From IMG/VR virus record IMGVR_UViG_3300037457_000038, positions 58,144 through 122,143 of that record: a stretch of DNA of 64,000 bases; one strand, written 5' to 3'. How positions within the stretch are numbered: position 1 is the first letter of the stretch; every line of letters starts with the position of its first letter. Below are positions 49,742 through 64,000 of this stretch, piece after piece. Below the pieces are notes generated by a model. The model was not told the origin of the DNA. It saw nothing but the letters and a program-made list of their open reading frames with translations, and ran no database searches. The position numbers and the translations under genes are program-made. This DNA comes from a virus.

Positions 49742-50280
49742 CCACAGCGACCACCGAGCGCACCGCCCTCTACCGCTTCTACGACGCGGAGGGCTCGCTG
49801 CTGTACGTCGGGATCACCAAGAACTTCGGCCAGCGGTGGAGCAACCACGCCCAGAGCAAGCCATGGTGGCCTGAGTCGCAGAGCCACACCGCCGAGTGGT
49901 TCGAAACGCGGCGCGAAGCGGAGGTCGCCGAGAAGGAGGCCGTCATCTCGGAGGGCCCGAGGCACAACGTGGTCCACAAACCCAAGGCGCCCCGAGTGCC
50001 CGTACCGAGGCCAGCCCCGCGAGTGAAAACGTTGGTCGACCCGAACGCCGACTACTGGACCGTTGCCGACGTCGCCGACTACTGGGGCGTCACAGCGCAG
50101 ACCGTCCGTAGCTACCGATCCCGCAAGCGCGGCGAGCTCCCTGAGCCGGACAACGTCTTCGGCCGTTCTCCCGTCTGGAGACCTGCGACCATCATCAACT
50201 TCAAGCGGCCAGGCCAGGGCGCGCGAACTGACTTGGGGAAGCCGACCGCCGCTGAGCCCGGCGAGGGGAACAGCCGGTGA
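49738..50280 (+). CDS. GIY-YIG domain plus HTH protein
   Basis: ALYRFYD...LLYVGIT...R; WTVADVADYWGV..TVRSY. Confidence 0.8.
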   Translation: MTTATTERTALYRFYDAEGSLLYVGITKNFGQRWSNHAQSKPWWPESQSHTAEWFETRREAEVAEKEAVISEGPRHNVVHKPKAPRVPVPRPAPRVKTLVDPNADYWTVADVADYWGVTAQTVRSYRSRKRGELPEPDNVFGRSPVWRPATIINFKRPGQGARTDLGKPTAAEPGEGNSR

Positions 50281-50364
50281 GCGTCGCCGAGGTGGCGTCT
50301 GTGGCAGGCTGATGGTGGTGGAAGCGGAGCGGGGCGTCCCGGTGGGGGCGCCCCGCAGTCGTGT

Positions 50365-50397
50365 CCGGAGCTTTGGCCAACGATCCCGTGTGACACT
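50365..50397 (+). promoter_or_regulatory. Late promoter motif copy (CCGGA-N22-GACACT)
   Basis: Same spacing as the other copies. Confidence 0.45.
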
Positions 50398-50446
50398 GCC
50401 CGCGAGCCCCGCCACCCGCGCAGAACGGGGCCGGAGGGAGGACCCC

Positions 50447-50791
50447 ATGACCACCGCAGATACCACCGGAGTGGCCGCAGTCGACAGCCTCGTCGTGTGG
50501 TCCGTCGCCGCAGTGGCCATCGCTGCCGGGTTGGCGTTGCTGTGGCAGATCGCCCGCGCGGTGCTGCGCGGGCTGCGACGCCTGGACGACATGGCGGATG
50601 ACTGGTCGGGCACGCCGGCACGCCCGGGGGTGCCCGCCAGGCCGGGGGTGTTGGAGCGGTTGGACGGGATTGACCGGCGGGTGCAGCGGATTGAGTACGA
50701 GGTGTTGCCGAATGGTTCGTCGTCGATGCGGGATGCGGTTGACCGGACGGACAGGCGGACGGCGCGGTTGACGCCGGAGGGTGAGGAGTAG
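50447..50791 (+). CDS. Lysis-associated 1-TM coiled-coil membrane protein
   Basis: TM helix then RPGVLERL...PNGSSSMRDAVDR, typical of actinophage lysis cassettes. Confidence 0.7.
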   Translation: MTTADTTGVAAVDSLVVWSVAAVAIAAGLALLWQIARAVLRGLRRLDDMADDWSGTPARPGVPARPGVLERLDGIDRRVQRIEYEVLPNGSSSMRDAVDRTDRRTARLTPEGEE

Positions 50792-51004
50792 GCGGCTGAA
50801 CTACTAGTAGTACTAGTCGAGCTACCAGTTGATGCAGGTCTAGCAGATGCGCGCCCCGCTCGGCTTGGCCGGGCGGGGCGCTTCGTCGTGCCCGCCACCC
50901 GCACGCACGACGGCCCCCACCGTGTGATGGGGGCCGTACGGCTGTCGCTCCCGGGGCCGCCGGGGCTACGGTTCTGAGTGTCGAGTTCAGAACATGGAGC
51001 CAGT

Positions 51005-52249
51005 ATGCCCGAGCAGACCGACATGCACATCGGCGCACGCGTGCGGATCGCACGTAACGCCGCCGGACTCACCCAGCTGGAGATGGCCGGTCACCTGGGC
51101 CGCTCCGAGCACTGGGTACAAGACGTCGAGCGCGGACGCCTCCCGCTCGACCGCTACTCCCTGATCACCGCCATCGCCGAACTCACAGACGTCGACGTGG
51201 TGTGGCTGCTGGGCCAGCCGTACCGGCTTCAGCGGGGCGGCGGTGCCCACGCTCACGCCCACATCCCCGCGTTGCGTAACGGGTTGCGGCGCGCGGGGCT
51301 GATCCTCTCCGGGCATCCCGGTCTGACCCCGCAGGCGGTGGCCGCCGATGCCCGGCCGCTGGCTGCACGCGCGGAGAAAGCGAACCGGGCGCGGCAGGCC
51401 GCGAACCTGCCGAAGGTCGCGGATCTGCTGCCTGCGCTGATCGAAGACCTGAATACGGCGCTGCTCCTCGAGGTGGACGCTGGCCGGGAGGCCGCGCTGC
51501 GGCTGATGGCGGATGTGGCGCGTACGAGCCGGATGTGCCTCAACCAGCTCGGCTACCCGGATCTTGCGTGGGTGGCTGCTGAGGTCGCGGCGGGTGCTGC
51601 GACCGCGTTGGATGATCCGCTGGTGAAGGCTGCGGTGGCGTGGGACCGGTGCGGTGCGCTGCTGCACCAGGCGTCGCTGCCCGAGACGCTGGCGGTCGCT
51701 GATGCGGCGCTGCGCGACCTCGAGCCTCTGGCGACGGCGCGGCGCCCGGAGGATGCTGCGCTGTCGCTGCGGGGCGCGCTGATGCTGCGCGGGGCGATCG
51801 CCGCGGCGCGCGGATCCCGGTCCAAGGATGCCTGGGCGCGGATCGACGGGGCACTCGAGGATGCCGACCGGCTCGGCCCCGACTGGCATGACCTCGAGTG
51901 GCAGACAGTGTTCGGGCGGGGCACGGTGGCGGTGCACGCGGCCGAGGTGGGTGTTGAGGTGCAACAGCCGGACACGGGGCTGAAGAGGGTGCCCGATGTG
52001 AATGTCGGGGCGGTGCCGTCGAAGGAGCGGCGTACGCATTACGAGATCGATAAGGCGCGTGCGTTCCGGACGATGGGGAAGTTGCCGCAGGCGGTGACGA
52101 CGTTGCGGGCGGCAGCGCAGGGCGCGCCATACTACGTGTACGCCGATCCGATGTCGCGTGCGCTGGTGTCGGATTTGCTGCGGGTGGGGGTTCCCTCGCA
52201 GGCTGCGGCGTTGTCGTCGCTGGTCAGGAACATGGAGTTGGTGCAGTGA
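51005..52249 (+). CDS. XRE-family HTH regulator with helical (TPR-like) C-terminal domain
   Basis: GARVRIARNAAGLTQLEMAGHLGRSEHWVQDVERG. Confidence 0.85.
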   Translation: MPEQTDMHIGARVRIARNAAGLTQLEMAGHLGRSEHWVQDVERGRLPLDRYSLITAIAELTDVDVVWLLGQPYRLQRGGGAHAHAHIPALRNGLRRAGLILSGHPGLTPQAVAADARPLAARAEKANRARQAANLPKVADLLPALIEDLNTALLLEVDAGREAALRLMADVARTSRMCLNQLGYPDLAWVAAEVAAGAATALDDPLVKAAVAWDRCGALLHQASLPETLAVADAALRDLEPLATARRPEDAALSLRGALMLRGAIAAARGSRSKDAWARIDGALEDADRLGPDWHDLEWQTVFGRGTVAVHAAEVGVEVQQPDTGLKRVPDVNVGAVPSKERRTHYEIDKARAFRTMGKLPQAVTTLRAAAQGAPYYVYADPMSRALVSDLLRVGVPSQAAALSSLVRNMELVQ

Positions 52250-52360
52250 TGCGCCGGGTGTAGGTACCCCCAGGAATTCTGGGGGTCGTGGTCGTGGGTG
52301 TGCGTCAGGGTTCTGAGCACTATGACGCACAGCACACGCATAATCACGATGGGGGACGGC

Positions 52361-52942
52361 ATGCCGCTGCTGCCCGCACGCGACGCCGCAGCCTACGCCC
52401 GCGCCTACGCCTCGAGACTTAGTTGGCCAGTTGCTCCGGGGCACCGTCACCGGCCCCGGAGCGGATGCACCTGCCTCGACAGCGCCACGGCCAGAGACTG
52501 CCCGGCTTCGGGCGCGCACCCGCTGGCGACCTGGGCTGTAGGGGCTCGTGCGGACCGTATCGGGGAGGAGTTCGGGGCGCCCGGCGTGTCGGTGATCGCC
52601 CCGACGCAGGGATTCGACGCGGTGGTGTTGCCCCGGCAGATCGGCATGGCCGTCATGGTCACCCTCGACCGGCGGCGGACAGTGCCGTGCCTGACCCAGG
52701 GCGAAGATGCGGTGCTGTTGGTGCAGCCGGGCACGGGCGGCGTGTTGGAGATGTGCGACTCGAGCGTGTCGGTGCGGTCCGGCGCGGATCAGTGGACGGC
52801 TCTGCCGCCGTCTCATGGGGTGCGGTGGGATACCCCGCCGTGGCATGAGGTGACTGGGGTGCCGGTCCCTTTGGTGCACGGGCATGCGGTCAAGCCTGCT
52901 GTGTCTCAGGCGTTTCATCTTGCTGCGGGAGCGGCACGGTGA
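52361..52942 (+). CDS. Bifunctional primase/polymerase N-terminal-like protein (probably degenerate)
   Basis: WPVAPG...CTC...CP..GAHP...FDAV...LPPS. Confidence 0.7.
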   Translation: MPLLPARDAAAYARAYASRLSWPVAPGHRHRPRSGCTCLDSATARDCPASGAHPLATWAVGARADRIGEEFGAPGVSVIAPTQGFDAVVLPRQIGMAVMVTLDRRRTVPCLTQGEDAVLLVQPGTGGVLEMCDSSVSVRSGADQWTALPPSHGVRWDTPPWHEVTGVPVPLVHGHAVKPAVSQAFHLAAGAAR

Positions 52943-53124
52943 CGAGCCTGTACGTGCGGCGCACCGCCCGCATCCACCCACTACGGCCCCACATCGCCGA
53001 CGCGGAGCACATCGACGGCGACGCGACCGCCATCATCCGCCCCTACCTCGCCGAACAGGAGGCCGCCGACCCGGACGACACGCCCTGCTGGATCGGCGAC
53101 ATGCCCACAGGGAGCGCGCCATGA
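52939..53124 (+). CDS. Hypothetical protein
   Basis: IDGDATAIIRPYL; coupled to neighbours. Confidence 0.65.
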   Translation: MTSLYVRRTARIHPLRPHIADAEHIDGDATAIIRPYLAEQEAADPDDTPCWIGDMPTGSAP

Positions 53125-53288
53125 CCGAGGCATGCTTCTCGTGTCAGGAAGACATCCAGGACCCGGAGCCGGTAGGAGTTCAGGTCACCGCGGAGTCCGG
53201 GCCCGAAGGGCGGCCGCTGTACCGGTGCGCCGCCTGCACATCACAGGTCCACGCGATCACCGCCTCACTCCAGGGGTCTGTCCGGTGA
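53121..53288 (+). CDS. Small Zn-finger protein
   Basis: CFSC...SGP...LYRCAAC. Confidence 0.65.
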   Translation: MTEACFSCQEDIQDPEPVGVQVTAESGPEGRPLYRCAACTSQVHAITASLQGSVR

Positions 53289-53458
53289 GCGCTGACACGC
53301 AGCTGGCGGCGAACTGCCGCCTCGCCACCGAACACCCGGAGTACGCGGACGAGCATGAGCGGTGCCGGGGCACCACGACGGTGCAGGTTCCCGGCGGCTC
53401 GTTCACTGGGCAGCGCTGCGACTGCCCATGCCACCAGCGGCAGGCGTCGCCACCCTGA
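53285..53458 (+). CDS. Small Cys/His protein
   Basis: C...H..C...CDCPCH. Confidence 0.6.
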   Translation: MSADTQLAANCRLATEHPEYADEHERCRGTTTVQVPGGSFTGQRCDCPCHQRQASPP

Positions 53459-53500
53459 GACCGGCCCCGGCCGTCTGCGTCCCCCGCGCGGCGGCCGGGG

Positions 53501-53743
53501 TCACCCGTCGGGCATCAGGCTGCCCGACGGGACACCAAGCGCGCGGGCGATGGCGAGAATCCGGTCGAGCGGGGGGCTGGTGATGCCAAGCTCGATGCGG
53601 ACGATGGTGCGCCGCTCGACCCCCACCCGCTCGGCCAGTGCCTCTTGGGTGAGGTTGGCCTGTATGCGGGCGTCTCGTATGCGGGCGCCGACCTGCCGAC
53701 GCTGAGCGAGGAGCCAGTCGGGGAGTGGATCACGGGGCGGCAC
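53501..53743 (-). CDS. Small XRE-family HTH regulator
   Basis: GARIRDARIQANLTQEALAERVGVERRTIVRIELG. Confidence 0.85.
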   Translation of the reverse strand: MPPRDPLPDWLLAQRRQVGARIRDARIQANLTQEALAERVGVERRTIVRIELGITSPPLDRILAIARALGVPSGSLMPDG

Positions 53744-53924
53744 CCGACGACCGTGGTGTGATCACTGCCGAATGTCTGTGCCACAGCATGTGACAGTTTT
53801 GGATCAAGCCGGGCGGGTAACTGCTCCACTACCCCCCCAGTTGAAACACCCGTCCTGGGCCGGGGTGCGGTCCTCAATCCCAGGACGGGCCCAGCCCGGC
53901 CACCAGCCACTGGCGGCCGGGCTT

Positions 53925-55349
53925 TCAGCCCTTCCAGTCAATCTGTATCGCGTCGGTGTCGAAATACCGGTCCGCACCGGGGATACGGCCCCTGCGCGCG
54001 GGAAGCACCGTGACCGTCATCAGATACGCCAGAGCCGCCCGCTTACGCGACAGGTCGAACCGCGCCCAGGCCTCCTCTGGATTAGAGGACCCCACGAGCT
54101 CTCCCACGGGGTTGGCCTCCACCGCGCGGGACATGGCGTCCTGGCCACGTTTCAGCCGTGCGCGTGCGCTCTGGGACGCGATCCGCCACTCCTGCATGTC
54201 CATCTCCCCCGCACCGCGCGCCGCCGCCAGCTCATCGAGTGTCTGCCGGGCCTCCCGCATGTCCCTCTGCGCGCCCCGGACATCCACGGGGTCTTTGCGC
54301 TGGGCGAGGAGATCGGCGGCGTCTTCGGCTGAGACGCGGTCGAGGATCATGATCTGGATGTAGTCGTCGAGGAGATCGCAGCGCCGGGTGAGGTGCTTGC
54401 TGGCGCGGCAGCTGTAGGAGGGGACCAGCAGCCCGCCCCGGGTTTTGTTGCCGGTGGAGCAGCGCATCGTGGTGCCGTCCGCGCACACCCCGCACAGGTA
54501 CAGGTTGGAGCCCAGGTATTTGCGTTCGTTGCCGGGGGCGACGCGCCGGCCGGGGTCGTCGAGGAGGGCGCAGACGCTGCGCCACAGTGGCTCGTCGAGG
54601 ACCGCGGGCCAACTGGCGGTCCCGGCTTCCTCCCCTCGGTGTTTCAAAATGCCGGCGTTGCGGGGGCGGCGGAGCATGCCGCCGACCTCTGGACCTTCCC
54701 AGTCGCTGCCGGTGCTGGTGCGGATGCCGCGCTCATTCCAGTCGGCGGCGATGGAGCGCAGGGAGGTTCCGGCGAGGACGGTATCGGCGGCTTCACGGAT
54801 GAGGGTGGCTTCGGTTTCGCGGATGGTGACGCCGTCGCTCTCGTATCCGAAGGGGCGTCTGCCGCCGAAGTACTGGCCGGACTGGGCCATCTCGTCGCGT
54901 TTACGCCGCTGTCGTTCGACCATGCGTTCGACTTCGTAGCGGGCTTGCACGCCGAGCTGGCGGGCGATCATTCGTCCGGTAGCGGTGGACAGGTCGAGGT
55001 GCCCGGCTTTGACCGTGCGGGTTTCGATCCGGCGGGGCTCACACACGTCGATGTATTCCTCCAGCTCTGCCGGAGAGCGGTGGAGACGGTCGGTGTGCCA
55101 GGCGAGGACCACGTCGATACGGCCGTTGCGGATGTCGTTGAGGAGCCGTTTGTAGCGGGGTCGGGGCTTCCCGCTGTAGGCGGACAGGTCATTGTCGGGG
55201 TAGATGCCGATGACGTCGAATCCGAACTGGGCGGCGAGGGCTTGGCAGTCCTCGGTTTGTCTGGTGACGCCGAGTCCGGCGCCTTCACGGTCACGGCTGA
55301 TTCTGCAGTAGATGGCGGCGCGGGTGCCGGTTGGTGGCTGGTTGGGCAT
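53925..55349 (-). CDS. int: Large serine recombinase (integrase)
   Basis: YCRIS catalytic Ser, DNDLSA, DRLHR, PFGY recombinase domain, CGVC zinc ribbon. Confidence 0.92.
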   Translation of the reverse strand: MPNQPPTGTRAAIYCRISRDREGAGLGVTRQTEDCQALAAQFGFDVIGIYPDNDLSAYSGKPRPRYKRLLNDIRNGRIDVVLAWHTDRLHRSPAELEEYIDVCEPRRIETRTVKAGHLDLSTATGRMIARQLGVQARYEVERMVERQRRKRDEMAQSGQYFGGRRPFGYESDGVTIRETEATLIREAADTVLAGTSLRSIAADWNERGIRTSTGSDWEGPEVGGMLRRPRNAGILKHRGEEAGTASWPAVLDEPLWRSVCALLDDPGRRVAPGNERKYLGSNLYLCGVCADGTTMRCSTGNKTRGGLLVPSYSCRASKHLTRRCDLLDDYIQIMILDRVSAEDAADLLAQRKDPVDVRGAQRDMREARQTLDELAAARGAGEMDMQEWRIASQSARARLKRGQDAMSRAVEANPVGELVGSSNPEEAWARFDLSRKRAALAYLMTVTVLPARRGRIPGADRYFDTDAIQIDWKG

Positions 55350-55419
55350 GGTTGAGCATGGCACATCAGGTGGGTGGTTGGTGTTGTTTCGCTAGTGCGG
55401 AAGGGTGGGGAGAGCTGTT

Positions 55420-55704
55420 TTAAGAGTGCTGGTCAGCGGCTCGGGGTGCGGATGCCGTCGGTGGCGAGGTGGGTGCTGCTGTGGGTGCGGGGGTGGTGCT
55501 GGCGCCTCCGTGGTGGAGGCTGAGGTGTTTTTTGCGGCGGACGGGTTCAGGGAGCTCGGTGTCGATGAGGTGCTGGATTCGTTCGCGTTCACGGGTGAGG
55601 CGCAGTGCCGTGTGCTTCCGGGTGAGTGTGGTGTTCTGGCGGTGTTGCGCTATGACGGTGATGGCGAGGGTGGCGCTGATGGCTATCGGGGCGATTGGGT
55701 GCAT
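55420..55704 (-). CDS. Hypothetical protein with N-terminal TM segment
   Basis: GGAG RBS; between repressor and integrase. Confidence 0.45.
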   Translation of the reverse strand: MHPIAPIAISATLAITVIAQHRQNTTLTRKHTALRLTRERERIQHLIDTELPEPVRRKKHLSLHHGGASTTPAPTAAPTSPPTASAPRAADQHS

Positions 55705-55833
55705 GCGCTTCTCCGTCGACAGTGGGTGGTGCCGCTGTCGGGGTGCGGTGTCCGTGCACCGTGCGCCTGCTACGGAAGGCATGCAAGGGGTTACTGTGGG
55801 GTAGTGCTTGTTCGTATGTCCCGAACAGCTTTC

Positions 55834-56277
55834 CTAGCCCGTCTCACGCCGCTGCTCCTCACGCTCCAGTCGCTCTTGCAAGCGCCGCAGATCCGCATCG
55901 ATCAGATCCCGGACGCCCTGGACCCGCTCGGCCAGGGGGACATCCGCAGCCAGGATTGCGCGGGCGCGCGGGTCGCTGAGAATCCACCCCTGCTCACTGG
56001 CCTCCACGGCCTGGATGGCGGCTCGCTCTTCAGGCAGAGGCGTGGGGTCTCCGCCTTCGAGGACTGCCTGGAGCGAGCCGGCATCCCAGCGGAGGGCGGC
56101 GTCGATTCGGCGTTTGGTAAGGCGTCGGGGGTTCGTCTTGCCCTGCCGGAAGTCGAGCAGGGACTGGTAGGACATTTTCGCCGTAGCTGCTACGTCTTTC
56201 CACATCATGTCGAGCTGCTGGCGACGCTCGTCCATGAGCTTGTCAGCGCGTTGAAAGTCGGGCTCGTGGGAGGTCAT
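55834..56277 (-). CDS. Immunity repressor-like HTH protein
   Basis: WKDVAATAKMSYQSLLDFRQG...IDAALRWDAGS. Confidence 0.75.
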   Translation of the reverse strand: MTSHEPDFQRADKLMDERRQQLDMMWKDVAATAKMSYQSLLDFRQGKTNPRRLTKRRIDAALRWDAGSLQAVLEGGDPTPLPEERAAIQAVEASEQGWILSDPRARAILAADVPLAERVQGVRDLIDADLRRLQERLEREEQRRETG

Positions 56278-56381
56278 GTCGGCAGGCTACCCGAATTGGC
56301 CCACATTTGATCTAACTGTGGCCTACTTTACTCACTCGGCGCTAACTTTTGGCCAAACCTTCACAGCCACCAAACCCCACA

Positions 56382-57704
56382 TCACACCAAGATCCACCCG
56401 CCATCTGCGCCCCGGAGCAACCCAGCAATCACCTCCCCGGTCACCGGATCGACAGCCTCACCACCTGCATTGACATATCGCACATCCACCCGCCGCGGAT
56501 CCGGCTCCGGACTGCCAGTCCGACGCCGCTCGGCGAGGCGGGCGCGCTCACGCTCCCAGTGCTCCCGCTGTGCTTCATGACGCTTCCGACGACGCTCACC
56601 CATCCCGTGCGTGCCCAGCCGGAAGGCCGCGTCCTCCCAGCTTTCCACCGGGCCAGGGCAGTCCGCGCTCGCCTCGCCGACACCTTCGAGGGCATGCTCG
56701 GACAGGTGGTACAGCTCCCCGACGTGGACGACCAGGCCGAGGCCCGCAAGCTTCTTCAACTGCCGGTACACGGTCGGACGGGAGACCGACGCAGCGCCCT
56801 GGATCTGCTGCACCGTCTGCCCGTCGTTCTCCGCGAGCGCAGCAGTGATGGCCAGTCCGCTACCGCCCAGCCCGAAGTGAGCGAAAGCGTCCTGTGCCAT
56901 GAGTCTTGCCGCGGCCCGGGAGTCGATGTCGGCGTCCGTACTGTCCTGTCTCACCGATGACCCACCCGCTAGGGGCCGCAGGCTGGGGGGGCCATGGGTG
57001 GCCAAACCGTGAGACTGACCCTCCCCGGAAGGGCTGATCAGCATCCACCTCGCAGCGTCGGTCGCCGTCCCCTGGTCGAGCTGCCTCAGCAACTTCGCTT
57101 CCTTCAACCGCCGGTTGGAGGTGCGTGCGGTCTGCTGACTGCATCCCATCCGCTCGGCGAGATCCCGCTCGGAGACGGTGTGGTCCCAGCTACCGGCCTG
57201 CTCGCAGATCGCCAGGCGGGCGATGAGGTTGCGCAGGTCGGTCTTCCCGGCGATGCCCTTCCAGGGGGTGCGTTCGATGCGGGCGCGGAGGTGGGCAAGG
57301 GATGCGTGGAAGTCGAGCCGGGTGGCGATGCGGTCGGTGGAGTTGACGTGCTGCTGGGCGCCGTCCCATGCGCGTGCGAGCCACGCGTGGGCGCGGTCGT
57401 AGCCGTGGCGGTGCTGGATTTGGCGGGCGTGGGCTCCGGCTTTGTGGGGGCCGTTGAGGAGGGTGTGGGTGAAGGCGGAGCGGGTCCATCCGTTACGGGC
57501 GGCGTCGGCGGCGATGGCGCGGGTGATGGCCCAGGCGTGGTTGGAGTCCGCACTGTTGGTACCGCCGCGTTGGCGGTTCCAGGTGGCGTATGCGCTGTGG
57601 GTGTCGCCGTCGGTGAGGAGTTTGTGCATGCGGGGCGACAGAGGTGGGGTGCTCTGGCCTGCGTAGTTGCGGGCTTTTGTGTAGTTCTGGCTATGCTGTG
57701 GCAC
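56382..57704 (-). CDS. Putative plasmid-type replication initiator (two winged HTH domains)
   Basis: SERDLAERMGCSQQTA and SVSRPTVYRQLKKL HTHs; 440 aa; structured leader; function inferred. Confidence 0.55.
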   Translation of the reverse strand: MPQHSQNYTKARNYAGQSTPPLSPRMHKLLTDGDTHSAYATWNRQRGGTNSADSNHAWAITRAIAADAARNGWTRSAFTHTLLNGPHKAGAHARQIQHRHGYDRAHAWLARAWDGAQQHVNSTDRIATRLDFHASLAHLRARIERTPWKGIAGKTDLRNLIARLAICEQAGSWDHTVSERDLAERMGCSQQTARTSNRRLKEAKLLRQLDQGTATDAARWMLISPSGEGQSHGLATHGPPSLRPLAGGSSVRQDSTDADIDSRAAARLMAQDAFAHFGLGGSGLAITAALAENDGQTVQQIQGAASVSRPTVYRQLKKLAGLGLVVHVGELYHLSEHALEGVGEASADCPGPVESWEDAAFRLGTHGMGERRRKRHEAQREHWERERARLAERRRTGSPEPDPRRVDVRYVNAGGEAVDPVTGEVIAGLLRGADGGWILV

Positions 57705-57806
57705 AGCGAATCTCGTCTCTGTTGCGTTCGCTCACGCCGTCGGGTGACTTGCGATCACCGCGTTCGGCCTTAGACCCCCCGGGAGGTGACCGGGGGGTCT
57801 TTTCTT
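57704..57806 (+). ncRNA. Candidate antisense (counter-transcript) RNA over the rep leader
   Basis: TATGCT -10 at 57692, three stem-loops, + strand hairpin with T tail. Confidence 0.45.
57772..57806 (+). terminator. Intrinsic terminator
   Basis: AGACCCCCCGG-gaggtga-CCGGGGGGTCT-TTTCTT. Confidence 0.75.
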
Positions 57807-57908
57807 GTGCCAGCCTACAGCTAAGGTCATGTCTTACCAGGTGTGGCTAGAGTTGTTACCCGTGAGTACCGGTTGTAACTTGACCTAACTTGAGTCTATG
57901 TTTGGCCC

Positions 57909-58163
57909 ATGGCAGATATCCGACTTGATCGGGACAAGCTGAAACGCCGCCGCGAGACCAGAGGCTTCAACGTGCCCGCCCTGGCACGCGCTGTAGGCGT
58001 CAGCTCCGAGCACATCTACCGAATCGAATGGGGCACGCGCCGCCCGTCGCCCCGCCTCTACGCCAGGCTCCGCGAAGTCCTCGACGTCAACGAAGAAGAA
58101 CTACTCACCGATGCCCCGGTCGGGTCGGAGGAGTCCGCCGAGTCCCCGGCAGGTGCGGTGTGA
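57909..58163 (+). CDS. Cro-like HTH regulator
   Basis: LARAVGVSSEHIYRIEWGTRRPS; divergent from the repressor operon. Confidence 0.85.
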   Translation: MADIRLDRDKLKRRRETRGFNVPALARAVGVSSEHIYRIEWGTRRPSPRLYARLREVLDVNEEELLTDAPVGSEESAESPAGAV

Positions 58164-58342
58164 GCCCCCGGCCCGAGTCGTGGTCGCGTGCCGCCGCCGA
58201 GAAGCGTCTCGGCCCTACCGCCGTCGCAGCAGCCCGCCGCCACGTAGCCGCCGCACCCCCGCTGAGCCCCGAACAACGCGCCCAACTCCGCGCCCTGTTC
58301 CAGTCCGCCCCACCCCGCCATGCGGCCACTGACGCCGCCTGA
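58160..58342 (+). CDS. Hypothetical protein
   Basis: APPLSPEQRAQLRALF; coupled to cro. Confidence 0.65.
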   Translation: MSPRPESWSRAAAEKRLGPTAVAAARRHVAAAPPLSPEQRAQLRALFQSAPPRHAATDAA

Positions 58343-58427
58343 CCCACAGATGTGGGCCCGCCCCTAACTCCGCAGTCCGGGACGGACCCCTCAGTTCACC
58401 TCACCACTGATGAAAGCGAGGCTCACT

Positions 58428-58823
58428 GTGAGCATCCAGAATACCGACTCGATGTCCATGGCGGTCGCCGCCCTGGACGCGATGGACAACCACACCACCC
58501 GCGTCCGCGAGGTGGCGGAGCGGCTGCTCAGCGTCCACGCCGACGGCCTGCCGAAACTGCTCACCGTCCGTACCGACGCGGGGGCCTCTGGTCCCCGTCT
58601 GGAGCTCCAGCCGCGTACGAACGAGGCCGCTACGCAGTGGGCGCAGGCGCTCGGGGTGACGCTGACGGAGTCGTTCGCGGGTGACCGTGACGGCTGGCGG
58701 CGGTGGCACACGAGCGGCTCTGTCGATGTCGACGGGGTGCGGGTGCATGTGGGCGCCTGCGAGTGGGTGCTTTCGGCGGTGGAGGCCGGGGCGGCTGCGG
58801 ACTCCATGGCGGTGGCCCGGTGA
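58428..58823 (+). CDS. Hypothetical protein
   Basis: GAGG RBS; early operon. Confidence 0.65.
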   Translation: MSIQNTDSMSMAVAALDAMDNHTTRVREVAERLLSVHADGLPKLLTVRTDAGASGPRLELQPRTNEAATQWAQALGVTLTESFAGDRDGWRRWHTSGSVDVDGVRVHVGACEWVLSAVEAGAAADSMAVAR

Positions 58824-59674
58824 GCGCGGCGGGCCGTCTTCAGACGCGTGAGGGCACGGCGTGGACACTGCGCGGCCTGAGCTTTGCTGGTGAGGGCTTG
58901 TACGCGCCGGAGGCTGTGCGTTGCTGCCCGCAGCAGTTGTTGGTGACGGCGGGCGAGTTGGCGGAGCACGGTGTGCGGACGCTGGTGGGCCAGGAGGACG
59001 TGGCCGAGCTGGACGTCGCCGTCCAGGTGGCCGTGCTGAAAGGGCTGCTGGCCCCGGCAGAGGCTGCCGCTCCGCTGTCGGCCGTGCCGGAGTCGAGGTG
59101 TGTCGAGGACGAGCTGACCGGCGCGCGGCTGTCGCTGTGGGAGGAGGAGCAGGAGAACGCGCGGCTGCGGGCTCGGGTTGCCGAGTTGGAGGACGTGGAG
59201 CGTCGTCTCCTCGACCTGCTACCCACCGAGCCCCTGCCCGCAGTGATGCTCGCCGAGGACATCCCGGCCGCCCGCTCGGAGTGGGCGGTGTGGCAGCAGG
59301 TCGCCGAAGCGCTGGACGTGCAGCTGCCGTACGTGCGGCCGGTGGATGAGGACCCGATCCCGTACCAGCAGACCGAGGCGGCGGACGCTGCCGGGCCGGA
59401 GGTGACGGTGTACCGGGCGTCGCACGACTCGATCGTCATGGGCCTGTACACCGCACGCGAGGCCGCGATGGACCACGTGCACGCCGTCCTCGCGAACGAA
59501 GAGGGCTGTGACGTGACTGCCCGGGTGATCTGGCGTGCGGACGACCCGGAGGCTGACGAGCCCGTGTGGGAGTGCTGGCTCTTCGACTCCGACATGGCCG
59601 ACGACGAGCCGACCGGCTATGTGGTGACGCCGCTGGAGGTCGCCTCCGCCTACGACGAGGAGGCGGACGAATGA
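58820..59674 (+). CDS. Hypothetical mosaic protein
   Basis: GTGA coupling; coiled coil. Confidence 0.7.
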   Translation: MSAAGRLQTREGTAWTLRGLSFAGEGLYAPEAVRCCPQQLLVTAGELAEHGVRTLVGQEDVAELDVAVQVAVLKGLLAPAEAAAPLSAVPESRCVEDELTGARLSLWEEEQENARLRARVAELEDVERRLLDLLPTEPLPAVMLAEDIPAARSEWAVWQQVAEALDVQLPYVRPVDEDPIPYQQTEAADAAGPEVTVYRASHDSIVMGLYTAREAAMDHVHAVLANEEGCDVTARVIWRADDPEADEPVWECWLFDSDMADDEPTGYVVTPLEVASAYDEEADE

Positions 59675-59898
59675 TCCGGCTGTTGGTCGTGTGCGTGTGG
59701 CTGTTCGTGGCCGCGTTCGCGTGGCTGGGGGTTGGTGCTGCTGTCGAGTGGTGGCAGCAGCCGATGCCTGCGGTGGAGCCTGCCAGCCCCGCCCCGTCCG
59801 CCCGTGAGCGTGCGGTGCCGGGTGGGGAGTTGGCGCCGTGCAGTCATGAGCTGCCGGATGTGCCGCGCTGCGCCCTGGACGGGGGCGAGGGCCGGTGA
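59671..59898 (+). CDS. Small membrane protein
   Basis: N-terminal TM; ATGA coupling. Confidence 0.6.
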   Translation: MIRLLVVCVWLFVAAFAWLGVGAAVEWWQQPMPAVEPASPAPSARERAVPGGELAPCSHELPDVPRCALDGGEGR

Positions 59899-60077
59899 CT
59901 GAGCTGCTGATCCTCGCCTCCTCGATCGCCACCTACGGCGGGCTCGCCACCGTGGCGAAGTACGCCATCGACCACGACGGGCACGTCCGCGAGGACCTGC
60001 GTCACGCCGCAGCGTTCCTCCTCGCACTCGCCGCCGCACTCGCCGCCGCACTCGCACACCTCAGGAGCCACCGATGA
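59895..60077 (+). CDS. Small membrane protein
   Basis: 2 hydrophobic segments; coupled. Confidence 0.6.
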   Translation: MTELLILASSIATYGGLATVAKYAIDHDGHVREDLRHAAAFLLALAAALAAALAHLRSHR

Positions 60078-60457
60078 ATGAGAGCTGCAAACCGCAACTG
60101 TCCGTCTCGCTCGACTCGACGTGGCTGCGTGCGGTGCTGCGGGTCGACGGCATCCGCTCCGACACCCTGTACCAGCTGGGTGCCACGTGGGCGGAGGACG
60201 ACGGCCGCGAGGACATCACCGAGGCGCTTGACCGGCTGGCCGAGCTGGCTGTTGGGAGCCCGACAGCGGCGGAGCTGGACGCCGGGATCGACGCGTTGGA
60301 CGACGCGGGCTGTTCGGAGCTCGCCGATCTGCGCATCGGCCTGGATGACGCGGAGCGGCTGCGGGACGAGTTGAACGCGGCGATCGCCAAGCTGTCCCGC
60401 TTCGGGACGGCCGCCGCGAAGGTTGTGCCGCACCAGCGTGAGCGGGGTGCAGCCTGA
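60074..60457 (+). CDS. Hypothetical protein
   Basis: AGGAG RBS; coupled. Confidence 0.7.
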   Translation: MNESCKPQLSVSLDSTWLRAVLRVDGIRSDTLYQLGATWAEDDGREDITEALDRLAELAVGSPTAAELDAGIDALDDAGCSELADLRIGLDDAERLRDELNAAIAKLSRFGTAAAKVVPHQRERGAA

Positions 60458-60723
60458 TGAGCGCCCGGTCTCGTCTGCACGCGATGGTGCGGCACGACAG
60501 CGACACAGACACCGCCGAGTACGAGGCACGACTCGACGCCTATCGGGCCGAGGTGCTGGCCGAGGCAGCCGACGCGATCGAGCAGGCACAGTCCCGCGAG
60601 GAGACCGAAGAGATCGACCGGTTCGGGCAACTCGATTACGAGACCGAGCTCATAGGCGAAGCCGTCCGCATCAAGGCCGCACTACTGCGCCGCATGGCCA
60701 CCGAGGCGGGTGGTTCCCGGTGA
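60457..60723 (+). CDS. Hypothetical protein
   Basis: LDAYRAEVLAEAAD motif; coupled. Confidence 0.7.
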   Translation: MSARSRLHAMVRHDSDTDTAEYEARLDAYRAEVLAEAADAIEQAQSREETEEIDRFGQLDYETELIGEAVRIKAALLRRMATEAGGSR

Positions 60724-60980
60724 GCCGCTGCGCTGTCCGGCCCATGGCGAATCACGCCCAGATCGCTGCCGCATGCCGTGCCAACCCGGGCCGGTGGCAG
60801 TACGTCAGCACCCACCGGTCCAGCCAAAACGCGGGGAACCAGGTCCGCGCTATCCAGATCGGGCGGGGCACCAAGCGGGCCTCCTCCTACGAGCCGCCCG
60901 GCGCGTACGAGGCCTGCATCCACACGTGCGGCGATGACTACGGGGTGTGGGCCCGCTACATCGGCCCCCCGCTGACCTGA
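60720..60980 (+). CDS. Hypothetical protein
   Basis: RANPGRW...VWARYIG. Confidence 0.6.
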   Translation: MSRCAVRPMANHAQIAAACRANPGRWQYVSTHRSSQNAGNQVRAIQIGRGTKRASSYEPPGAYEACIHTCGDDYGVWARYIGPPLT

Positions 60981-61051
60981 CCGAACCGCAGCGCTGCCCC
61001 GCCCGACCCAACCAGGCGGGGCAGCACCCCGACACCCAAGGAGAACACGCC

Positions 61052-61993
61052 TTGAGCACCACCACCGTGCAGACCGGGGCTTCGGCCCCGGCCGCCGGCC
61101 CGACCATCCTCGGACGGTTCGAGCCCGGCTCTGAGCCGTGGCACGCTGCCCGCGCGAACGGGATCGGAGGCTCGGAGATCGCCGCAGTCCTCGGCCTCAG
61201 CCCGTACGAGTCCCGCTTCTCCCTCTGGCACCGCAAGAAGGGACTCATCGGCCCCGTCGATGAGTCGGAGGAAATGTACTGGGGGAAGGTCCACGAGCGC
61301 GGCATCTGCCGCCGGTTCGCCAAGGAACACCCCGAGTGGTTCGTCCGCGGCGCCTACACCTACGCCGCCGCTGAGCGTCCCTGGCAGATCGCCAACCCTG
61401 ACCGCAACCTGTGGCCCACCGACAGCCACATCGATGACCGCGTCCCCGCCGCCGTACTGGAGGCCAAGACCTCCCGCGACGACACTGGATGGGGCAAGGA
61501 AGGCACCGACGATATCCCGGTCCACTACCGCGCCCAGGGCCTCTGGTACATGGACGTGACCGGCGCCCGCCGCTGCTACGTCGCCGTGCTGATCGCTGGC
61601 TCGGAGTACCGCGAGTACGTCATCGAGTACGACCCCGCCGACGCCCTGAAGATGCGGCAGGCCGCCGCCGAGTTCATGCGCACCCTCGCTGCCGATGAGC
61701 GCCCGGACATCGACGGGCACTCCGCGACCTACCAGGCGATCCGCGAGATCCCCGAGGGCCTCGACCCGGTCGACGTCGAGATCCCGACCCTGCTGCGCGA
61801 CCGCTTCCACGCCGCCCAAAACGCCTTCTGGGCTGCCGAGGACGAGCTCACCGCCTGCAAGGGCGAGTTGCTCGACGCGATCGGTACCGGCCAGCGCGCC
61901 GTCTGCGAACGCCAGCGCGTCGCCACCCGCACCGTCCGCGACGGCCACACCTACTCCCTGATGCCCGCACGCACTCGAAGGAACGCCCGATGA
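61052..61993 (+). CDS. YqaJ-like viral recombination exonuclease
   Basis: W...R..GIGGSEIAAVLGLSPY, ANPD, LEAKT, Y.AQ..WY. Confidence 0.9.
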   Translation: MSTTTVQTGASAPAAGPTILGRFEPGSEPWHAARANGIGGSEIAAVLGLSPYESRFSLWHRKKGLIGPVDESEEMYWGKVHERGICRRFAKEHPEWFVRGAYTYAAAERPWQIANPDRNLWPTDSHIDDRVPAAVLEAKTSRDDTGWGKEGTDDIPVHYRAQGLWYMDVTGARRCYVAVLIAGSEYREYVIEYDPADALKMRQAAAEFMRTLAADERPDIDGHSATYQAIREIPEGLDPVDVEIPTLLRDRFHAAQNAFWAAEDELTACKGELLDAIGTGQRAVCERQRVATRTVRDGHTYSLMPARTRRNAR

Positions 61994-62859
61994 CTGAGAA
62001 CACCGTTTCCAACGCCGTCGCCGTCCGCGACACCGGGCCCGGCGCCATGGTCGAGCAGTACAGCCAGGAATACGCGGCGCTCGTTCCCTCCCACGTCAAC
62101 GCCGACCAGTGGATCCGCCTCGCGGTCGGCGCCATCCGCGGCAACCCAGACCTGGAGACGGCCGCCAAAAACGACGTCGGCGTGTTCCTGCGGGAGCTGA
62201 AGACAGCAGCCCGTCTCGGTCTGGAGCCCGGCACAGAGCAGTTCTACCTCACTCCGCGCAAGTCGAAGGCCCACCGCGGCCAGAAGATCATCAAGGGGAT
62301 CGTCGGCTATCAGGGCATTGTCGAACTGATCTATCGCGCTGGGGCCGTGTCGTCCGTCGTCGTCGAAACGGTCCGCGCGAACGACACCTTCCGCTACGTC
62401 ATCGGCCGCGACGAGCGCCCCGTACATGACGTCGACTGGTTCGGCGGGGGCCGTGGCGATCTGGTCGGCGTGTACGCGTACGCGGTGATGAAGGACGGCG
62501 CCACTTCGAAGGTGGTCATCCTCAACCGCGATCAGGTGATGGATGCCAAGGCCAAGTCTGACGGCCGGAACTCCGACTACTCGCCGTGGAACACCAACGA
62601 GGAAGCGATGTGGCTGAAGACGGCCGCGCGGCGCCTCGCGAAGTGGGTACCGACGTCCGCCGAGTACATGCGCGAGCAGCTGCGGGCGCAGGCCGAGGTA
62701 GCCGCTGAACTTCCTGCGGGTGACGGGCCGGTGATGCCGCCGTCGTCTGCGGGGCTGCCCGACGACGAGGACGACGGCCCGATCGAGGCCGAGTTCGTCG
62801 ACGAGCCTGGTCCCGTCGAGTGGCCTGAGGCCGCGCAGCCGGGATCGGGGGCACGCTGA
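61990..62859 (+). CDS. recT: RecT-family single-strand annealing protein
   Basis: LGLEPG...YL.P...GYQG..ELIYR, PW...EAMWLKT. Confidence 0.9.
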   Translation: MTENTVSNAVAVRDTGPGAMVEQYSQEYAALVPSHVNADQWIRLAVGAIRGNPDLETAAKNDVGVFLRELKTAARLGLEPGTEQFYLTPRKSKAHRGQKIIKGIVGYQGIVELIYRAGAVSSVVVETVRANDTFRYVIGRDERPVHDVDWFGGGRGDLVGVYAYAVMKDGATSKVVILNRDQVMDAKAKSDGRNSDYSPWNTNEEAMWLKTAARRLAKWVPTSAEYMREQLRAQAEVAAELPAGDGPVMPPSSAGLPDDEDDGPIEAEFVDEPGPVEWPEAAQPGSGAR

Positions 62860-63212
62860 TGCGCGTCAGCCGCCGCACGCTCGTCGCGGAGAACCGCGAG
62901 CTGCGGGCCAGGATCGAGCGGCTGACCGAGCAGCGCCACGACGACCGCGATGACACGGAGACAGAACGCGGCGCCCGGAAGGAGGCAGAGCGGCTGGTGG
63001 CCGAGCTGCGCGGCAAGCTCCGCACACTCACCGCCCGACACGAGGCGCTTCAGCGGCGGTACGACGCGGCGGTCGGGATGGACGATCCGCAGGTCGCAGC
63101 GGGCCGTGACTGGCAGTCCCGCCGTGCGGACCGGCCCGGCCCCGGGAAGACCGCCCCGTCGACGCCGTCGGCGCCGCTGCCGGTACGCGAGCCGGGCGAG
63201 GTGGCGTCGTGA
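62859..63212 (+). CDS. Coiled-coil hypothetical protein
   Basis: TGATG coupling to recT. Confidence 0.65.
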   Translation: MRVSRRTLVAENRELRARIERLTEQRHDDRDDTETERGARKEAERLVAELRGKLRTLTARHEALQRRYDAAVGMDDPQVAAGRDWQSRRADRPGPGKTAPSTPSAPLPVREPGEVAS

Positions 63213-63448
63213 CCGGCCTCGATCTGGCAATCACCATCGCCGTCACCACCGTGGCCGTGCTGCTGCTGTGGACCGCGATGGTCCGGGTCCAGACCCGTAT
63301 CGCCCCCACCGTGCCGGAGGGGATGACGACGCGGCTGTGTGACTCGGTGACCTGCCGCCGTCCGGTGCCGCATGTGGTGATGCCGTGCGGCGCCGCCCTG
63401 TGCACCCGGTGCGGCACTGAAAGCCCCACCCCCTACCAGACGCCCTGA
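63209..63448 (+). CDS. Membrane-anchored Zn-ribbon protein
   Basis: TM then C...C...H...CTRCG. Confidence 0.6.
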   Translation: MTGLDLAITIAVTTVAVLLLWTAMVRVQTRIAPTVPEGMTTRLCDSVTCRRPVPHVVMPCGAALCTRCGTESPTPYQTP

Positions 63449-63531
63449 AACCGGTGTTGCCGGGCCGGTCGAGCCCTCCCCCACGGTCCCGGCCCGGCAG
63501 CGCCCCAAACCCACCTCCCCGGGAGGCACCA

Positions 63532-63876
63532 ATGCCCCGCACTCGCCCCGGCAGACACCGCGCCGTCGATGAGGTCGCACGCCTGGAACGCGAACTGGCC
63601 GGAGCCCAGCTCCTCATCGACGGCCTCCGCATAAAGGTGGCCGACGCCAACGATGCCCGCGACAAGGCCAACGAACGCGCCAACCTCCTCACCGAAGCAG
63701 ACACCCGCGCCGGACGGCTGGAGGCAGAGGTCACCGTGCTGCGCGCCGCGCTGGCCAACGCGCGGCGCATATCGGTGCCGTCTGGAGAGCGCGATGTGGA
63801 CGACGACGACCAGCCCACCGAGCCGATAGACGTCCGCCCGCTGTGGGCCGTGACCCAGCTGAGCCTGGAGGCATGA
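63532..63876 (+). CDS. Coiled-coil hypothetical protein
   Basis: GGAGG RBS. Confidence 0.7.
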   Translation: MPRTRPGRHRAVDEVARLERELAGAQLLIDGLRIKVADANDARDKANERANLLTEADTRAGRLEAEVTVLRAALANARRISVPSGERDVDDDDQPTEPIDVRPLWAVTQLSLEA

Positions 63877-63879
63877 CGC

Positions 63880-64000
63880 ATGGGCCTGTTCGAGTTTTTT
63901 GACTGGCTGTGGGTCGTGGCCACGGTCGCCTGGGCTGGGGCTCCCGTCGCGTTGATCGCCCTCGCTGTGTGGGCGGCCCGGGTCGCTCGCCGGAAGGCGC
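63880..64000 (+). CDS. Membrane protein, truncated by the window end
   Basis: GGAGG RBS; hydrophobic open frame to the end. Confidence 0.5.
   Translation, partial: MGLFEFFDWLWVVATVAWAGAPVALIALAVWAARVARRKA

Follow-up and report, generated by a model that had tools for sequence, protein, structure and literature searches.

The question raised by this locus is whether a strong hairpin in the 204-bp gap between two divergent genes of a virus, one encoding a double winged-helix protein and the other an XRE/Cro-like helix-turn-helix (HTH) protein, ends a short RNA antisense to the winged-helix gene. The window, which is the whole 64,000-nt stretch of DNA that was analysed, makes up the final 64 kb of one IMG/VR virus record of 122,143 bp (IMGVR_UViG_3300037457_000038) obtained from sediment metagenomes. 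We favour, with moderate confidence and from sequence evidence, a cis-antisense RNA that is ended by this hairpin. The two features on which the question turns are:

57772-57806, + strand: intrinsic terminator with a perfect 11-bp stem (9 G-C pairs), a 7-nt loop (GAGGTGA) and a U-tract that runs to 57806.
56382-57704, minus strand: 440-amino-acid double winged-helix gene, the first gene of a leftward unit that ends with a serine integrase gene.

In the hairpin, AGACCCCCCGG (57772-57782) pairs with CCGGGGGGTCT (57790-57800), and TTTCTTGTG stands directly after the stem. The folding energy of the hairpin RNA (-25.4 kcal/mol, z-score -4.03) was reached by none of 200 dinucleotide shuffles, which bears out the 11-bp hairpin with a T tail that had been described in an earlier note on this DNA. 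The elements of a Rho-independent terminator (a G+C-rich stem, a short loop and an abutting U-tract) are all found on the + strand; on the minus strand an A-run precedes the stem and no U-run follows it. Since the U-tract abuts the stem on the + strand only, the hairpin is an intrinsic terminator on that strand alone. The half-site AGACCCCCCGG is found nowhere else in the 122 kb, and on this ground an iteron or a repeated operator was rejected as the role of the palindrome. Rfam 15 covariance models run over 50000-64000 gave only a chance microRNA match (expect value (E) 0.86) elsewhere in that span. The loop (57783-57789) resembles a Shine-Dalgarno sequence on the + strand, with no start codon at a suitable distance, and its complement in the minus-strand leader resembles the 3' end of 16S ribosomal RNA; the likeness of the loop to a Shine-Dalgarno sequence is probably due to chance.

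A + strand open reading frame (ORF) of 259 amino acids (56994-57773) ends at the hairpin. Its G+C fractions at first and third codon positions (GC1 0.84 and GC3 0.62) follow the pattern of an antisense frame, and the minus-strand gene that it overlaps has a GC3 of 0.81. Because of this codon G+C the ORF is regarded as spurious and no genuine + strand gene ends at the hairpin, in agreement with the earlier note. The hairpin is an orphan terminator, and the transcripts that it would end run antisense to the 5' end of the winged-helix gene; as it is genuine, correctly oriented and without a + strand gene, a + transcript antisense to that 5' end is the simplest reading. Another perfect 11-bp hairpin, without a T-run, sits at 53504-53531, flanked on one side by the last of the + strand late genes and on the other by the 3' end of the integrase gene, and is a candidate bidirectional terminator or attachment site. 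If it stops read-through from the late genes, then any + transcript that reaches 57772 would have its start within the interval 53.5-57.8 kb and would be antisense to the leftward unit.

The start of the winged-helix gene at 57704, as given in the earlier note, was plausible and differed from the choice of the gene caller, which had placed it at ATG 57629 (415-amino-acid P0002). The peptide PPLSPR, encoded before the methionine at 57629, is conserved in homologues of several clades, and in the plasmid clade the codons of this region vary at third positions as in coding sequence. GTG 57704 is the sole in-frame ATG, GTG or TTG start upstream of ATG 57629. On these grounds GTG 57704 was accepted as the start; it is likely the true one, with ATG 57629 truncating the protein. 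The first 25 codons from 57704 have a GC3 of 0.68, compared with the value of 0.81 for the whole gene. The terminator lies 68-102 nt upstream of GTG 57704, that is, it is an antisense-strand terminator inside the leader of its presumed target. The RNA would overlap the ribosome site or the start codon only if it starts at about 57704 or deeper in the gene.

The mechanism that we propose begins with a short non-coding + transcript, which would start in or just inside the 5' end of the winged-helix gene, run antisense through the leader and be ended by the Rho-independent hairpin. The sequence elements that could belong to such a transcript are:

57667-57672, + strand: TTGCGG, a -35-like hexamer matching 3/6 positions of the consensus, with a 19-nt spacer; a match at chance level.
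57692-57697, + strand: TATGCT, a -10-like hexamer and the sole TANNNT hexamer from 57571 to the terminator.
57704-57806, + strand: predicted body of the antisense RNA, its 5' end being placed on the assumption of a start about 7 nt after TATGCT.
57705-57710 and 57727-57732, + strand: stem AGCGAA/TTCGCT with a 16-nt loop.
57736-57768, + strand: imperfect hairpin containing GGTGA (57743-57747) and TCACC (57755-57759).
57656-57683, + strand: weaker terminator-like hairpin (-12.5 kcal/mol; 3/200 shuffles as good) in codons 10-17 of the winged-helix gene, overlapping the -35-like hexamer.

If TATGCT acts as a -10 element, the RNA would measure about 100 nt, and its complementarity would take in the start codon, the ribosome-binding region and all that remains of the leader. 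Pairing of this RNA with the messenger RNA (mRNA) would then block translation or lead to cleavage, and converging transcription would also interfere, as a by-product. By either route the RNA would lower expression of the gene that heads the leftward unit, in which the winged-helix gene is followed by those for the regulator, the small ORF and the integrase. A 26-codon + strand ORF starting from the ATG within TATGCT was dropped as a candidate gene; its GC3 is about 54% and it is in the same frame as the spurious 259-amino-acid ORF.

Loci with homologues of the winged-helix gene were gathered from genomes (17), viruses (9) and metagenomes (18), together with several plasmid regions, and are numbered with an L. 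Terminators were scanned on both strands in 39 loci (38 homologues and the window), over 600 nt upstream of the gene and 1.1 kb inside it. L019 (cut at its 5' end), L027 and L028 (equal here to the L026 sequence), L030 (the same record as L024), L038 (equal to L037), and L040, L043 and L046-L049 (partial or distant matches) were left out of the count. With a cut-off for compact and strong terminators (at most 32 nt and at most -20 kcal/mol) that, to the disadvantage of the comparison, was picked after the output had been seen, seven were found upstream of the gene on the antisense strand (window, L012, L017, L034, L035, L036 and L042), none upstream on the sense strand, and none inside the genes on either strand. 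These seven represent five lineages including the window, L042 being borderline, and all are placed in non-coding DNA, with the likely start codons following at a distance of about 40-230 nt.

Three of the loci share a conserved terminator and an adjacent 9-bp stem-loop:

L034:1491-1605, L035:2118-2232 and L036:2150-2262, antisense to the winged-helix gene: stem-loop followed by an intrinsic terminator.

Three compensatory pairs are present in this structure, and two further single changes are paired only as G.U on the antisense strand. The region is taken to be non-coding because the loops carry indels of 1-2 nt. In these loci a symmetric -10, situated about 25 nt ahead of the ATG, is the best promoter candidate (TACTCT on the sense strand; TAGAGT on the antisense strand, or TACAGT in L034), which suggests a bidirectional promoter and a divergent RNA of about 200 nt. 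In a second hairpin family (L039, L041, L042, L044, L045 and L046) the variable pairs are G.U on the antisense and C.A on the sense strand, and the antisense fold is the more stable one in L041, L042 and L046 and equally stable in L045. L044 was not counted as a strand-informative wobble, its sense fold being slightly more stable. Four substitution events all favour the antisense strand as the folded one, an outcome of about 1 in 16 by our own reckoning if the strands were equivalent, and this gives indirect support to the antisense reading. Covariation across homologues, the check proposed in the earlier note, thus shows antisense G.U pairs in analogous hairpins but finds no alignable relative of the hairpin in the window.

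Several results weigh against a dedicated antisense RNA. About one TANNNT hexamer is expected by chance in the stretch from 57571 to the terminator (estimated from base composition), and promoter pairs of a quality equal to or better than TTGCGG/TATGCT occur 227 times in the genome on both strands, or 0.93 per strand-kb; a stricter promoter scan of 56000-59000 returned no promoter-like site. The stem AGCGAA/TTCGCT (-6.5 kcal/mol) was equalled by 39/200 shuffles and the GGTGA/TCACC hairpin (-14.8 kcal/mol) by 19/200. The two hexamers and both stems are present where the earlier note had seen them, but neither a promoter nor stems more stable than shuffled sequence can be claimed from them. Since neither the promoter nor the two extra stems rise above chance, the length of about 100 nt is a guess; of the antisense RNA proposed over the leader, the terminator and its orientation stand. 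In the comparison, a lenient threshold gave 29 antisense and 19 sense terminators upstream of the genes, and also 26 antisense against 4 sense terminators inside them; as the excess is found inside the genes too, the antisense strand has a background excess of T-runs. The terminators of the relatives are analogues that are not alignable to the window hairpin. An RNA from the symmetric -10 in L034-L036 would diverge from the gene without covering the ribosome site, and in L039 and L044 it is the sense fold that is slightly more stable. The 15 closest relatives (59-63% identity), which form the Streptomyces plasmid clade, are without such a terminator. This clade carries instead a different, strongly conserved non-coding upstream element of about 300 nt, and the G.U pairs of this element point to the sense strand:

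About 250-700 nt upstream of the gene in L001, L002, L003, L004-L011, L014-L016 and L032: element of about 300 nt.

The element begins with a 16-codon ORF behind GGAGG, which is followed by several covarying hairpins; double changes occur in 12/67 predicted pairs and nothing in Rfam matches. Candidate roles for the element are those of a structured leader or an RNA associated with an origin. An apparent antisense terminator in the IMG/VR clade, about 540-580 nt upstream in L023, L024, L026 and L029, was rejected and the lineage dropped: it lies in a small sense ORF (GGAGG-N8-ATG), and its T-run is the complement of Gln-Lys codons. A conserved small sense ORF is present about 540-600 nt upstream in L021-L029 (a phage-plasmid-like clade), where it mimics an antisense terminator in simple scans.

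The record has a CheckV completeness of 100, no terminal repeats and a G+C content of 68%. On the minus strand, the leftward unit runs from the winged-helix gene through a regulator and a small ORF to the serine integrase gene, and the divergent XRE/Cro-like gene has RecE- and RecT-like genes further to its right:

55834-56277, minus strand: 147-amino-acid regulator, matching a PHROG 'transcriptional regulator' family.
55420-55782, minus strand: ORF of 120 amino acids.
53925-55364, minus strand: large serine recombinase (serine integrase).
57909-58163, + strand: 84-amino-acid XRE/Cro-like HTH gene, starting with ATG 57909.
57852-57893: candidate operator repeats, GTTGTTAC / GTTGTAAC 20 bp apart.

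Promoter-like hexamers of the XRE/Cro-like gene are found at TTGTAA (57873) and, after 18 nt, at TATGTT (57897-57902); ATG 57909 follows 7 nt after the latter hexamer, and the gene is probably leaderless. A minus-strand -10-like hexamer (TAGACT, 57898-57893) overlaps the XRE -10-like hexamer by 2 bp. Within 57852-57893 there are two copies of TAACTTGA, 10 bp apart, the only ones in the 122 kb, and both this pair and the GTTGTTAC / GTTGTAAC pair are candidate operators.

With this layout, the terminator could serve as an insulator without a dedicated small RNA, stopping pervasive or read-through + transcription, antisense to the leftward unit, from entering the XRE/Cro-like gene and the early genes that follow. 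In agreement with this, the promoter-like hexamers of the XRE gene begin about 65 nt after the terminator and the XRE ATG follows about 100 nt after it, and upstream of it there is no promoter better than chance. The second, weaker + terminator-like hairpin 100 nt upstream would be expected if antisense transcription were a general nuisance. However, the perfect hairpin at 53504-53531 could already stop read-through from the late operon, and outward terminators recur upstream of homologues with differing neighbours, which ties them to the winged-helix gene and not to XRE. We consider an insulator unlikely.

It is likewise doubtful that the palindrome works on the minus strand, as a stem-loop in the mRNA leader (a stabiliser, a processing site or a protein-binding site), or as DNA to which the integrase or one of the three HTH proteins binds, the T-run being incidental. 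In favour of this, the 110-nt minus-strand leader folds better than expected (z-score -3.65; 0/200 shuffles as good), whereas the whole 110-nt stretch of the + strand does so less clearly (z-score -1.84; 12/200). All pairs of the stem are Watson-Crick, so that the stem in the window carries no strand information, the upstream element of the plasmid clade favours the sense strand, and the minus-strand hexamer TAGACT would place the hairpin in a leader of about 180 nt. On the other hand, the T-run directly adjoins just one side of the stem, the half-site has no second copy in the 122 kb, the non-Watson-Crick changes in the relatives favour the antisense strand, and the integrase gene is 2.4 kb and three genes away. 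That the hairpin arose by chance and has no function is very improbable: G+C-rich DNA yields many hairpins, 139 in this genome with a stem of at least 8 bp and at least 6 G-C pairs, but only 7/139 have a T-rich tail or an A-rich head, distinct perfect hairpins of at least 11 bp number 12 in the 122-kb genome compared with a mean of 0.8 in 20 Markov-1 simulations, and this one lies exactly within the regulatory gap.

Searches by nucleotide, protein and pattern yielded no close relative usable for covariation of the window hairpin itself. In blastn against plasmids only the coding part (query 257-1348) was matched, in 7 records. Neither the hairpin pattern and the XRE protein, searched in viral contigs, nor single-protein patterns, searched in genome contigs, gave a close relative. 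A DNA search of 401 Streptomycetaceae genomes found a match at E <= 0.001 in 171; two matches were long, both covering only query 7-348, which is coding, and among the matches listed the others were of 24 to about 110 bases, none of them intergenic. Rfam returned no match in 7 homologue loci. Among the eight sequencing datasets listed for this DNA none was of RNA. No difference from the window is seen in the metagenome contigs that cover 57651-57855 (run X1, and X3 and X4 in parts), which therefore give no information on variation. A 169-nt contig from run X2 shows 27 differences from the XRE gene in the 146 nt of 57919-58064, from which it follows that diverged relatives of the phage exist in sediment metagenomes.

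What the presumed target does was approached through its homologues and its fold. The protein has two winged-helix regions and matches only generic winged-helix and HTH families; sequence searches of Pfam, PHROGs, NCBIfam and the PDB gave no specific family. Its AlphaFold2 model (predicted local distance difference test (pLDDT) score 75, predicted template modelling (pTM) score 0.35) gave no Foldseek match at E <= 0.001, and RepA_N initiators were weak matches (E 0.04-0.09 over 82-85 columns), in the company of numerous other winged-helix proteins. The label 'rep-like' that the earlier note gave to the target is a reasonable guess drawn from its context, and not a result of these matches. Homologues number 93. 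PLSDB has homologues in 24 records, 22 from Streptomyces and 2 from Kitasatospora, with one place in each; the majority are large linear plasmids, and ParA genes are near the homologue in those records that were inspected. Nine IMG/VR contigs, the 154-kb circular plasmid pRLB1-9.1 among them, carry distant relatives (34-37% identity), and blastn and tblastn against a phage collection found no relative of the protein. A literature search of limited scope found no paper that deals with these winged-helix proteins or with antisense control in linear plasmids or phages of Streptomyces.

The absence of matches to ParA (PF13614) and ParB_N (PF02195), the two partition families tried in the 122-kb record, next to the presence of a serine integrase bears on the idea of a plasmid prophage. 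In the earlier note the antisense RNA was read as a copy-number control that supports this idea; the idea gains nothing from the locus. Because the target heads a unit of regulator and integrase and neither family was matched, we consider copy-number control speculative and less likely than control of a leftward lysogeny or maintenance unit.

Plasmid countertranscripts such as RNAII of pMV158 and RNAI of ColE2 block translation of an initiator. The arrangement predicted here from sequence resembles them in that a short RNA lies opposite the leader of the target and has its own intrinsic terminator within that leader. Unlike in those systems, the target is outside the recognised Rep families and heads an operon with a regulator and an integrase, and the element is a 122-kb integrase-bearing phage. 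In the attenuation type (RNAI/II of pT181, RNAIII of pIP501) the antisense RNA also lies over the rep leader and a sense-strand attenuator is needed in the leader. Three scans reported no sense-strand terminator upstream of the winged-helix start, and attenuation of the pT181/pIP501 type is therefore not supported. Phage antisense RNAs of the lysis-lysogeny region include OOP of lambda, sar of P22 and c4 of P1/P7. Like these, the predicted unit would run from promoter to terminator over a short distance, antisense to a lysogeny or immunity gene and beside divergent repressor/Cro-type genes, but without a relation to them in sequence or family.

An actinobacterial precedent for antisense control of an initiator is CgrI of the pCG1 family in Corynebacterium: as described in PMC13088423, a mutation in the cgrI promoter raised copy number, a result that its authors described as consistent with their proposed mechanism, in which less cgrI transcription leads to more repA translation. 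For extrachromosomal prophages of actinobacteriophages, Wetzel et al. (2020, PMC7157519) describe RepA-like proteins or a non-coding RNA as needed for replication, and in the same account about 20% of cluster A phages are without an integration cassette and have parABS in its place. Replication modules of plasmid type, one of them based on RNA, are thus known from prophages of mycobacteriophages without such a cassette. The virus studied here would be similar to such prophages as an actinobacterial temperate phage with plasmid-type functions. It differs from the parABS phages of cluster A, as they are described there, in having a serine integrase and no PF13614 or PF02195 match, and the RNA of Wetzel et al. 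is a proposed initiator, not an antisense brake.

It is plausible that the locus is an added instance of the known antisense or countertranscript arrangement, and as such a predicted, ordinary regulatory feature. A wider reading, which we consider quite unlikely, is that the + RNA takes part in the lysis-lysogeny decision, with an RNA made in the lytic direction silencing the leftward unit, and that an outward structured RNA is an ancestral module of the winged-helix family in Streptomyces linear plasmids, integrated elements and phages; if true, actinobacteria would have in it a maintenance cassette of a new kind, made up of RNA and protein. For Streptomyces vectors, a terminator and antisense unit of this kind would be a useful part. 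If the cis-antisense RNA is real, it would provide a first candidate for control by RNA at the genetic switch in a large temperate phage of Streptomyces type with plasmid-derived genes, and an unstudied winged-helix family, present as a single copy on 24 large Streptomyces and Kitasatospora plasmids, would be RNA-regulated.

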